IMG/VR virus record: IMGVR_UViG_3300023174_000056
Location: 32,001-96,000 of that record
From: a virus
DNA length: 64,000 nucleotides
Direction: 5' to 3' (one strand)
Below are positions 11,614 to 33,680 of this stretch, piece by piece. The translations under genes were made by a program, and so were the position numbers. Within the stretch, counting starts at the first letter, position 1, and each line of letters starts with the position of its first letter. Under the pieces are notes generated by a model. It ran no database searches, had not been told where the DNA came from, and saw only the letters and a list, made by a program, of their open reading frames with translations.

Positions 11614-12292
11614 TTTTTACCTCGTTATATGCTTTAATTGTTTCTGGAAACAAATCCTCAAGAATTTTTAGCATTGCTTCAGCAACTTTTTGGATTTCAA
11701 GTTGCGCTCCTTCGTGAGAGCGTAATTCAATAAACTTGAGAATGTTGTTAAGATTTGCACTTGCGTAATATTCAGTGTACATATTTTGTGGAAGAATTCC
11801 ACGGGCTTGTTCACGGCATACACCTTTTCGCATCATTTCTTCGTAGAGAAACACAGCAGCCAAATGGTGATCTCTGATAGCTCTTGAAGCTGTAACTTCT
11901 CCAAGTTCATAAACAATTGGATCAATTAAATCATCTTCATTGCTAGCCTGACGGTTTTTTTCATGTTGAGTTCTGAACTTCATTGGTTCATAAAATTCTA
12001 GATTCTCCGCTGTATAGCGACGAGAGATTTCATTGTATGACCAAGTACGATGCCGGTGATGCTGCGAACGGATAAAGAGCGGAACCTTTACCCGAAACGT
12101 AACAAAACAATGCTCTAACGTGCTTGTGTGCTTATGCTTAATAAGATAACGAATAAGTTTACGATCCTTGTCGTCTAGTTCAGATTTATGAACCCCAAAT
12201 GATACCCGAGCAGAATTAACAATAGTAAGGTCTGAACCGATAGAGTCAACAAGTTCAACTTTTCCAATCCCATCTCCATATATATCAATCAT
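11597..12292 (-). CDS. thyX: flavin-dependent thymidylate synthase
   Basis: NSARVSF, HTSTLEH, QHHRHRTWSYNEISRRY, REQARGILP, LR...AQ.EI. Confidence 0.97.
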   Translation of the reverse strand: MIDIYGDGIGKVELVDSIGSDLTIVNSARVSFGVHKSELDDKDRKLIRYLIKHKHTSTLEHCFVTFRVKVPLFIRSQHHRHRTWSYNEISRRYTAENLEFYEPMKFRTQHEKNRQASNEDDLIDPIVYELGEVTASRAIRDHHLAAVFLYEEMMRKGVCREQARGILPQNMYTEYYASANLNNILKFIELRSHEGAQLEIQKVAEAMLKILEDLFPETIKAYNEVKNGTKL

Positions 12293-16243: not shown

Positions 16244-16498
16244 TTAACCCTCTAGGAATTCCTTAACTCTTACTACGTTTTGTGCTCCAACTAGACGCTT
16301 AACTTCTTCATTGTCTTCGATAAGCATAAAAGTTGGAACACCTCTAATATCAAAATCTTTTGCCATATCAGACTGTTCATCAATATCTACAACTTCAAAC
16401 TGTACGTCACTTCTTGCCTCTTTTAACTGTTGGAATACGGGTTTCGCTTGTTTACATGGCCCACACCAACTTGCGGAAAACATTACAATTTTTTTCAT
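16244..16498 (-). CDS. thioredoxin
   Basis: FSASWCGPCK, IRGVPT. Confidence 0.95.
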   Translation of the reverse strand: MKKIVMFSASWCGPCKQAKPVFQQLKEARSDVQFEVVDIDEQSDMAKDFDIRGVPTFMLIEDNEEVKRLVGAQNVVRVKEFLEG

Positions 16499-17877
16499 GA
16501 TGCCCTTTGCTCCTTTTTATAATTTTTATACTTTTGTTTTAAGTTTTCTTCTTGTTTCTTTGTTGCTTTTTCCATAATTTCCGTTGCGGTTTCCGTGCTT
16601 TGTTGTAATACTTTAATTTTAACGTTCGCAGTATCCATGAAAATTGGGAACACCAATCCATCAGGACCATTTCTGTTCTTGGCAACAAAAATACGCCCTT
16701 CGTTTGTGTTCTTATCCTTTATTGTTCTGGAAATTGTGAAAATGAAGTCTGCGACGAAGCATTTATTGAAGGCTTCTGAAATGCTTTCCATCGTAATAAC
16801 CTCTGCGTTGAGTCCGCTTCGGTTAGTCTGAGATGCAGTCCAAACAGGACACCCATAGATCTGTGCAATAGCCCGCATTTCTTCATAGATGCTCTCCAAT
16901 TCATTACGCTTCTCTCTCTGAGCTGTGATAGGTCTAATTAGATCTCCGTAATCTACAATGACCATATCAATTTTAAAATCTTTACGTTTTAATTTTTCAA
17001 GATGGTTTTTAATTGTATTTGTCGTGGCCGACTTAGTTGGGTATTCTTTAACAATAAGTTTACCTTTGATATCCTTAATGTTTTCCCAAACCATCTCTTT
17101 TTGGTCTTTTACATCTGATAAAGCAATACCAGAAATACAAGAGTCATAACGTAGTGCCACAACTTTGTCTTGTAATTCCAATGAGTAGTGTACCACATTC
17201 TTGCCAGCTTTTAATGCAGCTGCTCCAAGATGCACAAGCGCCATACTTTTACCTGCGCCAGTTGGTGCAATAACTACTCCAAGTTCACCTTTACCTAATC
17301 CACCTTTTGTGATGCTATCAATCAGTTCCCAATCTGTTGAAAGAGGATTACGTGCCATAACTTCAAAGCGCTTCTCAAAATCAACAATAAAATCATAACC
17401 ATGATTATTATCAGTTCCAAGCTTTAACGCATCATTGATAATCTTGCTAATTTCATCATATGATGATTGTTGAATCAACCCAACTGATTTAATCATTGCT
17501 TCTTTTAATTTTTGTTTTCTACAAAAATCGAGAGAAACATCCTTAATATGTTGCTCGCCGTCCAATGAAAATTCATTAGCCTGAACTCTTGCAAAGAATT
17601 CTCTTGTTTGCTTCTGTAACAGCTCTGGTTCTTTTTCAATCTCTGTACGTAAAATAGTTGTAATCGTATCTCTTGAAGGATGCGTGCCATATTTCTTACG
17701 ATATTCAAAAACTTTTTCTACGAAAAGACGTAAATATTTTAATTCAAAAAAAATAGGATCCAGTACTTCACTAATTTGATCACAAAATACACGGTCATCT
17801 AACATAATTTGTACTAAATTTTCTTGGAACTTTGTTCCATATTTTTCAAAAGTCGCTTTTTCATTTACAAATGACAT
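16495..17877 (-). CDS. replicative helicase, DnaB/T4 gp41-like
   Basis: APTGAGKS Walker A, YSLE, IVDYGDL, TASQTNR, KNRNG. Confidence 0.95.
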   Translation of the reverse strand: MSFVNEKATFEKYGTKFQENLVQIMLDDRVFCDQISEVLDPIFFELKYLRLFVEKVFEYRKKYGTHPSRDTITTILRTEIEKEPELLQKQTREFFARVQANEFSLDGEQHIKDVSLDFCRKQKLKEAMIKSVGLIQQSSYDEISKIINDALKLGTDNNHGYDFIVDFEKRFEVMARNPLSTDWELIDSITKGGLGKGELGVVIAPTGAGKSMALVHLGAAALKAGKNVVHYSLELQDKVVALRYDSCISGIALSDVKDQKEMVWENIKDIKGKLIVKEYPTKSATTNTIKNHLEKLKRKDFKIDMVIVDYGDLIRPITAQREKRNELESIYEEMRAIAQIYGCPVWTASQTNRSGLNAEVITMESISEAFNKCFVADFIFTISRTIKDKNTNEGRIFVAKNRNGPDGLVFPIFMDTANVKIKVLQQSTETATEIMEKATKKQEENLKQKYKNYKKEQRAS

Positions 17878-19216: not shown

Positions 19217-19655
19217 TCAAAATTTGTAAGTTCCAATAAATTCATTATCAACAGAATAATAAACCTGCCTGATACCACGCTCCTGCATTAATGCATGACA
19301 CATAGTGCAAGGCTTGCTCATTCTGTCTTCTTTTTTACCCTTAGAAGCTCTTGCAACATACATAATAGCGCCCTTAGTTTGCGAGCGAGGAATGTTAAGA
19401 AGAGCTTTAACCTCTGCGTGATACGTAGAAACACCTTTTTCTTCGGGACGAAACTTTGCACCAACAGAAGAATACTTTTCAGAATTAATACCGAGATTAA
19501 TGACAGCACCGCCCCTAACAAGAACAGCACCATGACGAAAATTACCATAAGTTGAACATTCTGCCATTTTCTTAGCTAACTGAAAGATACCTCCGTACTC
19601 TGTTGCTTGTATCCTTCTTTGCTACAATAATCTCCTGCGGGTCGTCGTTGTCCAT
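19217..19655 (-). CDS. cytidine/dCMP deaminase-family Zn enzyme, expressed via predicted +1 frameshift (join 19655-19584, 19582-19217; about 145 aa)
   Basis: HGAVL, HAE, PCTMC motifs in 19217-19567; promoter and AGGAGG RBS lead to ATG 19655 in a different frame; GGAGG-TAT-CTT-T cassette joins them giving RRYLQLAKKMAECS. Confidence 0.8.
19581..19594 (-). other. prfB-type programmed +1 ribosomal frameshift site
   Basis: CGG AGG TAT CTT TCA versus prfB AGG GGG TAT CTT TGA; internal SD 3 nt before CUU-U. Confidence 0.75.
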
Positions 19656-19661
19656 AAAGTA

Positions 19662-19708
19662 GAACCTCCTAGTGTTCTCATACTACCACTAGGAGGCTCA
19701 GTTGTCAA
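19662..19708 (-). promoter_or_regulatory. sigma70 promoter embedded in SD-sequestering hairpin
   Basis: TTGACA-17-TAGTAT; stem CCTCCTAGTG/CACTAGGAGG with -10 in loop and AGGAGG in 3' arm. Confidence 0.85.
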
Positions 19709-31244: not shown

Positions 31245-33680
31245 TTATATAGCTTGTGGTCTTAATTCTGCATTTGCCAATCTTGCTATTTCTCTTCCGT
31301 TTGCTTGGATGACTAATGGACGATTTGCTAAAGCCATCATTGCTTGATACATTTTATCATCATTATTGCCAGAATTACGACCAGCTTTTGTAAAATCTAC
31401 TAGCATAGCAGTATCATTTTGTGTACCACTTATAAGTTTGCCAGCAGCGGTTTTAATAACTGGTAATCCAGGCGATGAAAGAACGTCCTCTCCTTTTTCA
31501 TCTGGTTTCAATGCTGTAGAAGATTTATTATCTGGAGCCATCTTATCCGTGAGTACTCCTCCAACACCCTTCATAAAATCTTCTGCAATGCCTAGTTTAT
31601 TCAATCCTTTTACTAAAACATCACCAGCACTCCATCCAAAAGCACCTGCAAGACCATTAACTATACTTAAACCAATACCAATTGGTCCTCCAAAAGCTAA
31701 AAGACCATTTAATATAGTATTGGCACCACCTTTTACGGCTATCTCGCCAACAGTTTTTTTAAGACCATCATCTGGCGTTTTCCCACCAGCTGTACCAGTT
31801 TCAATAGCATCCTTGATATCTTTATAAGTGAAAAACACGTCTAAGGCTGGTCCAAGGAATTTTAAAGCAGTTTTCAAGGCACCTTTTGCTGCTGCTTTAG
31901 CACCACCAGCAGCAACTTTGCCTCCAACATCAGCAGTGGCTTCTAGACCAGCTCTTTCTGCACCGCTTGCTAATTTATAAGCTTCTTTTGCGGTTTTTCC
32001 AGACGCACGGGCCTCTTTAAATATTTTGGTACCTTCTTCGCTTAGATTACCGATTGATTTTTTGCCAGCTTCTGCTACTGTTTTTGACCCTGCGGATGCA
32101 GGAACTGGTAAATTTCCTGCGCCTCCTCCCTTAAATATACCACCAATCTTATCCTTTAAAAATCCACCAGCCATATTTGCTGCAACTGCTCCAGCTAGGG
32201 CAGTAATTGTTCCAGCTAGAAAGAGTATCTTTCCTCCCAAAGAATCTAAAGTTTTGTCTAACTTATCATTCATTTGCAAATAAGTGTCAACTGCACCGGC
32301 ACCGCCTACTGCTTCAGTCATTCTAGCAGTAGTTTTACCAGCAGCACGCTCTTCACCAGTTGCTGCTTCTTTAGCTAAATCTCTTACACTTTTTTCTTTC
32401 TTTAAATCTTCCTGTTCTCTAATTGCTTTAGCTAATTTATCTCCTGTCAAATTAGCTAAACCTTTAAATGTTTGCGGATCAATACCAGAAGCTTGTGTGA
32501 CTGCTCTCATTACTTTTGGATCGTTTAAATCTAGACCCGCTCTTTGAATGTTTTCAACGATATATTGAATTTTTTCTGCGCCTTCTAGATTCACCAACTG
32601 CCCAACATCAAAAAGATCCATACCTGCTAAAGCATTCAATCTACCGGCAAACTCTCCTGCACCTTCAAATGTTGATAGCTTTTCCGTTAAGTCAGTTAAT
32701 GTACTAACTTGCGTTCCAGCTAAATGAGCTTGCCTCTCTAGCCCTTCAAATTGTTTTCCAGCGTTAGAACCATAAATTGCTAAACGATTTAAGTTTGAAG
32801 TTAAATCTGAGTTTACTTCTGAAGCTGTTTTTCCTATGGATCTTGCTAAATGCACTAAATTTTCTTCTAAATCTATTGCTGTTTCTTTAGAAACTCCAAG
32901 ATTTGTATTTAAAGTATTAACAACAGTAGAAAACTCCTTTGAAGGAACTCCTAATTGTTCAAGGCTTCTTGCCATTTCGGCCGCTCTTGAACGAAACTCT
33001 AAACTAGTATCATTAAAACCAACTATTGTAGTTGATAGATTACTAAAAACCCTAGCTGCGTCTTCATGTTGAGTTCCTAAATCTGCGGTAGCTTTCTGCA
33101 AGGCTACCATTTCTTCTTTATATTTTCTACCAGCTCCTGTTGTTTTAGCAAAGCTTGCTTGTGCTGCGTCCATTTGCTTTATCATTCCAATTGCCATTTC
33201 AGGAGTGTATAATCCTTTAATATTAAAGTAGGCTTTTCCGGCCTCCATGCCCATATCTTTAATATTACCAGCAATTTTTTTAAATGCTTCAGACGCTTTT
33301 GAAGTATTATTTTCAACTTCTTTTAATTCTTTATTGATTGTTTTTAGGTCTGCAATATATCTTTTTGCTTCTTCGCTATTCTTTTTTCCAGCCTTTATTT
33401 CGGCTTCGAGGGCGTCTTCAAGCGTGCGTTGCATCTGTTTTAATGCACGTTGCTTTTCACTTCTTAATTCTTCTCTTTTTTGCTCGCCAGAATAAATTTC
33501 TTCTATTAATTCTTTTTGAATTTTATAAACTTCATTTTGCTTTTGCAAACTAGCAGGAACATCAGAGGAATCACTATCGTCAGTAGCTGTTCTTCTTGTG
33601 GCTCTTGAAGATGTGCCACCTTTTACAACTTTAAGAAGGTTTTCTAAAGCCGACTCTAATTCTTTTGGATCATATGCCAT
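31245..33680 (-). CDS. tail tape measure protein
   Basis: 811 aa Ala/Gly-rich helical protein with hydrophobic segments, after tube and chaperone. Confidence 0.8.
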   Translation of the reverse strand: MAYDPKELESALENLLKVVKGGTSSRATRRTATDDSDSSDVPASLQKQNEVYKIQKELIEEIYSGEQKREELRSEKQRALKQMQRTLEDALEAEIKAGKKNSEEAKRYIADLKTINKELKEVENNTSKASEAFKKIAGNIKDMGMEAGKAYFNIKGLYTPEMAIGMIKQMDAAQASFAKTTGAGRKYKEEMVALQKATADLGTQHEDAARVFSNLSTTIVGFNDTSLEFRSRAAEMARSLEQLGVPSKEFSTVVNTLNTNLGVSKETAIDLEENLVHLARSIGKTASEVNSDLTSNLNRLAIYGSNAGKQFEGLERQAHLAGTQVSTLTDLTEKLSTFEGAGEFAGRLNALAGMDLFDVGQLVNLEGAEKIQYIVENIQRAGLDLNDPKVMRAVTQASGIDPQTFKGLANLTGDKLAKAIREQEDLKKEKSVRDLAKEAATGEERAAGKTTARMTEAVGGAGAVDTYLQMNDKLDKTLDSLGGKILFLAGTITALAGAVAANMAGGFLKDKIGGIFKGGGAGNLPVPASAGSKTVAEAGKKSIGNLSEEGTKIFKEARASGKTAKEAYKLASGAERAGLEATADVGGKVAAGGAKAAAKGALKTALKFLGPALDVFFTYKDIKDAIETGTAGGKTPDDGLKKTVGEIAVKGGANTILNGLLAFGGPIGIGLSIVNGLAGAFGWSAGDVLVKGLNKLGIAEDFMKGVGGVLTDKMAPDNKSSTALKPDEKGEDVLSSPGLPVIKTAAGKLISGTQNDTAMLVDFTKAGRNSGNNDDKMYQAMMALANRPLVIQANGREIARLANAELRPQAI

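Follow-up and report, generated by a model that had tools for sequence, protein, structure and literature searches.

We find that the gene for a predicted zinc deaminase in an uncultured freshwater phage is split between two reading frames by a single base, and that more than 50 diverged relatives keep both this break and the nucleotide signal around it, which makes a deliberate one-base slip of the ribosome very probable. Our preferred reading, to which we assign a probability of roughly 80%, is a programmed +1 ribosomal frameshift that uses a cassette of the prfB type without its stop codon, in which a Shine-Dalgarno (SD)-like element would stimulate a slip on CUU_Y. The gene lies on the minus strand of the window, meaning the whole 64,000-nt stretch of DNA analysed (positions 32,001 to 96,000 of IMG/VR virus record IMGVR_UViG_3300023174_000056). 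The record itself is 168,144 bp long, has 34.6% G+C and is rated 92% complete.

Layout of the split deaminase gene

Read from the ATG at 19655, the 0 frame encodes MDNDDPQEIIVAKKDTSNRVRRYL-SVS-TAA, with its stop at 19574-19572, and the deaminase domain lies in the +1 frame relative to this ATG (Table 1). The +1 frame is closed upstream by a TAG (19624-19622), after which no ATG, GTG or TTG occurs until the ATG at 19567. The original prediction for this stretch had described the frames, the TAG, the junction, the start codons, the promoter, the ribosome binding site (RBS) and the motifs, all of them correctly; our reading of the minus strand confirmed its statement that the deaminase frame has no start before Met 19567. 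The promoter is kept in the close relatives L002 and L003, and SD-like RBSs also precede the leader ATG in relatives. Within the 168-kb genome, the GGAGGNNNCTTY motif is single-copy, occurring at the deaminase gene only.

We also observed that, within the promoter spacer, CCTCCTAGTG (19696-19687) has its exact reverse complement in CACTAGGAGG (19674-19665), the segment that includes the leader RBS; the -10 box falls in the loop between the two. The pairing is kept in L003 and shows one compensatory pair in L002 (CCAGTG/CACTGG). Given this position of the -10 box, RNA reading through from upstream could hide the RBS, whereas RNA begun at the promoter would not.

Table 1 Features of the split deaminase gene, and the ThyX gene of the same window
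Feature	Position	Strand	Remarks
Sigma-70-like promoter TTGACA-17-TAGTAT	19680-19708	-	10/12 matches; TG before -10 (extended)
RBS AGGAGG	19665-19670	-	9 nt before ATG 19655
0-frame leader ORF	19572-19655	-	27 codons + TAA; codons 1-24 read as deaminase N-terminus
Junction	CGG 19595-93, AGG 19592-90, TAT 19589-87, CTT 19586-84, T 19583, CAG 19582-80	-	
Internal SD-like GGAGG	19590-19594	-	within Arg-Arg codons CGG AGG (19595-19590)
Spacer / E-site codon TAT	19587-19589	-	3 nt
Proposed slip site CTT_T	19583-19586	-	T 19583 is the proposed skipped base
0-frame A-site codon TCA (Ser)	19581-19583	-	sense codon
+1-frame deaminase part	19217-19582	-	Q25 to F145 + stop
HAE zinc motif	19420-19412	-	+1 frame
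PCxxC zinc motif	19312-19298	-	+1 frame
ThyX (flavin-dependent thymidylate synthase) gene	11642-12256	-	about 7 kb from the deaminase gene

Diverged relatives share the frame break and a frozen junction signal

We collected 160 loci from contigs of viral and metagenomic origin, and 54 distinct sequences among them have the one-base break. These come from many freshwater metagenomes and projects and encode proteins 50-95% identical to that of the window, and all 54 have the leader MD.D...SKK.RRYL in the 0 frame and the deaminase in the +1 frame, with the 0-frame stop lying 2-22 codons past the junction. A mutation private to the window phage was rejected as an explanation, since 54 distinct loci share the break, and the sharing of break and flanking motif among so many loci is far beyond chance.

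The break is also visible in the protein database, whose clusters include 44 frame-broken calls reading GG[IYF][FS][QK]LAKK (the +1 reading of the motif), 27 short calls whose start lies at the junction or beyond it, and 16 in-frame forms, all counted as cluster representatives. Many gene calls of 131 residues begin ...GGIFQLAKK, which corresponds to GGAGGTATCTTTCAG in the +1 frame, and in-frame relatives of 145-149 residues read ...RRYLQLAKKMAECS..., the predicted trans-frame product.

Codon differences reveal that protein-level selection switches frame exactly at the junction. On the leader side, the synonymous share of differences is 0.30 in frame 0 vs. 0.05 and 0.03 in the other frames; on the deaminase side, it is 0.72 in the +1 frame vs. 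0.03 in the others. For instance, the conserved leader Ser at -8 is encoded by both TCN and AGY codons. The features by which programmed frameshifts are recognized comparatively are all present here, namely a break in diverged homologues, coding selection on both sides of it, and a conserved signal at synonymous sites.

To describe this signal, we counted codons at the junction in the 54 frame-broken loci and took codon usage from the phage genome. Arg at -4 is CGG in 52/54 loci and Arg at -3 is AGG in 54/54, and GGAGG is intact in 53; the spacer that follows is always 3 nt long (TAT 44, TTT 3, TTA 3, ACT 2, CTA 1, CTT 1); Leu at -1 is CTT in 51 loci and CTC in 3; the extra base is T in 27 and C in 27 but never A or G; and the first +1-frame codon is CAG in 48 and AAG in 6. 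The overall pattern is GGAGG-N3-CTY-Y-MAG, in which the C at 19586 (54/54) and the G directly after the A-site codon are invariant. No Arg codons are rarer in the phage genome than CGG and AGG (3% and 7%), and their fixation contrasts with the invariant Arg at +15, which uses five codons. Synonymous sites are frozen at the junction only (CGG AGG, CTY, Y and MAG), while other invariant residues are codon-variable. The prfB frameshift is defined by an SD-like sequence placed 3 nt ahead of CUU_U, 3 nt being the spacing specific to +1 shifts, and GG_AGG is a natural variant of the prfB SD (PMC12421855; PMC5009743).

As a separate observation, the first +1 codon (19580-19582 in the window) is never CAA or AAA in the 54 loci, against a genome preference for CAA (81%) and AAA (74%). 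RNAalifold on 23 loci found no conserved RNA structure 3' of the site, just a 4-bp hairpin within the motif that shows no covariation.

The original prediction had proposed a prfB-like +1 cassette whose slip product would read ...RRYLQLAKKMAECS..., and its main elements fared well: the break recurs in related contigs, GGAGG, spacing and CTY-Y are conserved with it across the 54 loci, and in-frame relatives encode exactly the junction expected from the slip (...RRYLQLAKK...). Conservation of the fuller string GGAGG-TAT-CTT-T(C/G)A, which it had named as a check, held for GGAGG, the 3-nt length and CTY-Y, but the sequence of the spacer and the A-site codon vary.

A single deaminase encoded across the junction

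When CTTT is read as one step, the gene yields a 145-aa protein (P0001) instead of a 116-aa ORF, and this longer reading scores higher against both family profiles that we compared. It reaches 56.7 bits against the Pfam family PF00383, well above the cut-off of 25 and compared with 49.7 bits for the 116-aa ORF, and 74.6 vs. 60.1 bits against phrog_174 (dCMP deaminase family), where the match begins at residue 13, within the 0-frame part. The zinc ligands H79-A-E81 and P115-C116-x-x-C119 are invariant. A search of the family profile against the PDB returned 4p9c, the dCMP deaminase of cyanophage S-TIM5, as best match (E 4.6e-07), in an alignment that begins at RRYL, the start of helix 1.

In the AF2 model (pLDDT 88.7), residues 9-12 form a strand and residues 18-32 a helix that crosses the junction between L24 and Q25, and a fold search was headed by dCMP deaminases. 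Strand 9-12 is absent from the 116-residue truncated form, as is half of helix 1. Profile matches and model together indicate that the gene product is probably a single 145-residue zinc deaminase of the CDA fold, whose nearest relatives are small viral dCMP deaminases.

Proposed slip on CUU and the alternatives to it

In the mechanism we propose, translation would start at ATG 19655 and the slip would occur with the Leu codon CUU (19586-84) in the P site. GGAGG, three bases upstream, would pair with the anti-SD tail of 16S rRNA, and the short SD spacing would weaken P-site pairing as in prfB; peptidyl-tRNA-Leu could then re-pair on UUU, which overlaps CUU (half of the relatives have UUC instead), and decoding would resume at CAG in the +1 frame to give ...RRYL/QLAKK.... 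Ribosomes that do not slip would read UCA GUU AGC UAA and release a 27-residue peptide. That the ribosome is responsible, where exactly it slips and what the SD-like element does are inferred from comparison, and the SD-type RBSs of the phage itself are our ground for assuming that the anti-SD is used. The restriction of the skipped base to pyrimidines is what re-pairing of a G34 tRNA-Leu on UUY requires; three loci read CUC_C, where +1 re-pairing on UCC is poor.

The chief alternative places the +1 shift elsewhere in the 13-nt block, for example on the tandem CGG-AGG acting as hungry codons, which would give ...RR/IFQLAKK, and we regard it as improbable. The rarity of these two Arg codons in the phage suits it. 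So does the block's +1 translation, which is conservative too ([I/Y/F/L]-[F/S]); where a variant has Leu at -2 in the 0 frame, the +1 frame gives Tyr or Phe, and comparison alone therefore does not fix the slip point within these 13 nt. Against this, the C at 19586 never varies even though the +1 frame would leave it free as a third codon position, and the observed change of CTT to CTC would there mean Phe to Ser. All 16 in-frame protein clusters read RR[YF]L and never RRIF, and the outgroup consensus is RY[LF]. Finally, tRNA-Arg re-pairs poorly on GGA or GGU, and a variable spacer of constant 3-nt length suits the SD model.

A split arrangement, in which a 27-codon upstream leader ORF is followed by a truncated 116-residue deaminase made from Met 19567 through termination-reinitiation, appears very unlikely, even though the window's 0-frame stop (19574-72) lies just 4 nt before ATG 19567 and gene callers give 116-aa products (P0009). 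The position of Met 19567 is occupied by Leu (CTT, CTC or CTG) in 33/54 loci and 11/54 have no ATG, GTG or TTG anywhere upstream in the deaminase frame, which argues that separate initiation is not the conserved route. The variable position of the 0-frame stop likewise speaks against reinitiation, as do the protein-level selection on the leader peptide, its in-frame fusion in relatives, and the loss of strand and half-helix that the truncated form would suffer.

Correction of the frame at the RNA level, with transcriptional slippage or editing dropping one base, is less likely still. Known transcriptional slippage requires long A/T runs (PMC5009743), but no homopolymer here exceeds 3 nt and half of the loci read CTTC; moreover, a model of this kind gives no role to a GGAGG held so strictly at a distance of 3 nt. 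The comparison rules out a decaying pseudogene or a mistake in sequencing or assembly, for although errors and mutations typically take the form of one base added to a T run, the same break appears in 54 distinct sequences from many projects, half of them without the T run, and both halves of the gene are under purifying selection.

Returning to the slip on CUU_Y, we considered what might set its efficiency. Since the A-site codon is a sense codon, unlike that of prfB, RF2 would not be the sensor. The original prediction had put the decoding of Ser UCA, and hence the seryl-tRNA supply, in its place, but the comparison leaves such a sensor unsupported: the A-site codon varies (UCA 27, CCA 21, CAA 6), UCA is the commonest Ser codon of the phage (29%), and the window phage has its own tRNA-Ser(UGA), whereas the related phage G003 has a UCA site without that tRNA. 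Matching of the A-site codon by a phage-encoded tRNA was a further candidate. The window phage, whose tRNAs include tRNA-Ser(UGA) and tRNA-Gln(UUG), fits it, and G004 has a CAA site together with tRNA-Gln(UUG), but with G003 no consistent pattern emerged across the two complete relatives, and we rejected it. A quadruplet-reading tRNA was rejected as well, because all predicted phage tRNAs have 7-nt anticodon loops.

UCA, CCA (66% of Pro) and CAA (81% of Gln) are each the commonest synonymous codon by the phage's own usage, from which the host's may differ. With an A-site codon that is neither a stop nor rare in phage usage, a prfB-like pause is not evident and shift efficiency may be low; the near-consensus promoter and perfect RBS could offset a low shift rate, and the frameshift could possibly serve, as the original prediction had also suggested, as a throttle on deaminase output. 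We also raise, as a tentative and rather doubtful suggestion, that the frameshift is more than a tolerated indel and acts as a regulatory device. How efficiently ribosomes shift would then depend on the condition of the translation machinery in the infected cell, which would time or limit deaminase synthesis. Its inputs might be, for example, anti-SD availability, or how well a host with different codon usage supplies tRNAs for the A-ending codons UCA, CCA and CAA. If true, this would be the first sense-codon, SD-driven +1 sensor outside prfB.

Gain and repeated loss of the frame break

Because the marine relatives that form the outgroup (about 45% identity, GGAGG absent) are all in frame, and some of them already read AGG TAT CTT at the junction position, the cassette probably arose in place, through a one-base insertion into pre-adapted sequence. 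The family would in this way illustrate how such a cassette can originate from outgroup-like AGG TAT CTT.

The frame-broken clade has a support of 100/99 and its earliest branches are frame-broken, with the in-frame forms appearing as tips or tiny groups nested inside it; well-supported branches force at least 6 changes, and parsimony allows at most 14. These reversions occurred via different deletions, such as loss of the A of TCA in L001 (giving RRYLS) and loss of the pyrimidine in others, and the in-frame forms all read RR[YF]L[QKS]. GGAGG is broken in 5/12 in-frame loci vs. 1/54 frame-broken loci (Fisher p = 5e-4), the in-frame variants without it reading CGAAGG, CGGAGA, AGAAGA, CTGAGG, and CGCAGG with CTG. 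Judging from the tree, the repeated reversions mean that the frameshift is dispensable, yet it has been retained over most of the clade's history.

In two in-frame lineages, we additionally observed a GIY-YIG/NUMOD3 homing endonuclease gene adjoining the 3' side of the deaminase (L171:1996-2772 and L173:1985-2764).

Phage genome and source of the deaminase gene

The window region is a replication and nucleotide-metabolism module, with genes for ribonucleotide reductase, DnaB helicase, 5'-3' exonuclease, UvdE, a RecA-like protein, a gp32-like SSB and PolA, alongside that for ThyX. No ThyA was found alongside ThyX in the phage genome, which is consistent with a route from dCMP through dUMP to dTMP in a phage rich in A+T, and the presence of ThyX together with sequence similarity points to dCMP to dUMP deamination as the putative activity of the gene product.

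Several other features of these genomes were recorded. In one relative, the DnaB helicase gene is interrupted by an intein that bears a LAGLIDADG homing endonuclease (Hom_end_hint; L167:2920-3447), whereas the window's DnaB (16495-17877) has none. Outside the window, the phage genome has a tmRNA gene (154576-154865, tag ANEDVEFESYALAA, ARAGORN) and a cluster of 9 tRNA genes (339-2638 and 152894-152967), nearly all for A-ending codons (Ser UGA, Arg UCU, Gln UUG, Lys UUU, Glu UUC, Leu UAA, Ile UAU and others). One of these, a 90-nt "tRNA-Ile(UAU)" (2549-2638), is unusual, carries a long variable arm and has a counterpart in a relative (L181:1671-1756).

Across cultured phages and the species genomes of bacteria and archaea, our searches placed the deaminase family only on uncultured phage contigs. 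No relative of the deaminase was found in the bacterial and archaeal species genomes, and a DNA search of the phage collection returned nothing but a single short unrelated match. The nearest cultured match to the phage's helicase is that of Microcystis phage Mel-JY01, at 38% identity. The best cultured-phage deaminases, from Streptomyces phages, are also just 38% identical and their gene is in frame, and the frameshifted gene thus has no annotated precedent; literature searches for a frameshifted phage deaminase likewise found no report. In metagenomes, genes of this kind are mis-annotated as truncated or chimeric proteins of 116-131 residues, and gene callers or frameshift predictors that require a stop or a rare codon will miss them.

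Comparison with known deaminases and frameshift systems

Natural programmed +1 frameshifts in bacterial-type translation are very few, with prfB as the paradigm, and a stop codon is usually considered essential for the efficiency of a prfB-type shift.

As an enzyme, the predicted product resembles the S-TIM5 dCD (PDB 4p9c) and the PBCV-1 bi-DCD in its length of about 140 aa, its CDA fold and its HAE and PCxxC motifs. Sequence identity between the window protein and these small viral dCMP deaminases is just about 20%, and the substrate assignment made here is putative. The sole deaminase frameshift in the review by Atkins (2016) is the -1 shift of Bacillus subtilis cdd. That case is alike in being an SD-stimulated frameshift in a CDA-family deaminase gene (CGA_AAG with an upstream SD) (PMC5009743), but the shift occurs at the gene's 3' end and is described as incidental, the enzyme not depending on it.

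[quoted passage not shown] The yeast sites combine a rare A-site codon with a special tRNA-Leu(UAG) and have no SD stimulator, whereas the deaminase cassette has A-site codons that are common in the phage and a conserved SD-like element.

The closest resemblance in layout is to prfB, whose signal consists of AGGGGG or GGAGG, 3 nt and CUU_UGA_C. In both, the site lies early in the gene (after about 24 codons) and a short peptide would be the non-shifted product; in each, an internal SD-like GGAGG stands exactly 3 nt ahead of CUU, UAU is the E-site codon, and the slip, a proposed one in the deaminase gene, goes from CUU to UUU; and in both the signal has been repeatedly lost in evolution, with the SD decaying in in-frame versions (PMC12421855; PMC5009743). 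The deaminase cassette differs in that its A site holds UCA, CCA or CAA rather than UGA, and hence there would be no RF2 autoregulation; in that the base after CUU may be C; in that the next conserved element is MAG, as opposed to the C after UGA in prfB; and in that it sits in a phage deaminase gene unconnected with termination. An unrelated gene for a phage enzyme has in this way preserved the cis elements of prfB (GGAGG, 3-nt spacer and CUU_Y) over deep divergence but without the stop codon, offering a natural test of how far an SD and a slippery codon alone can drive +1 shifting.
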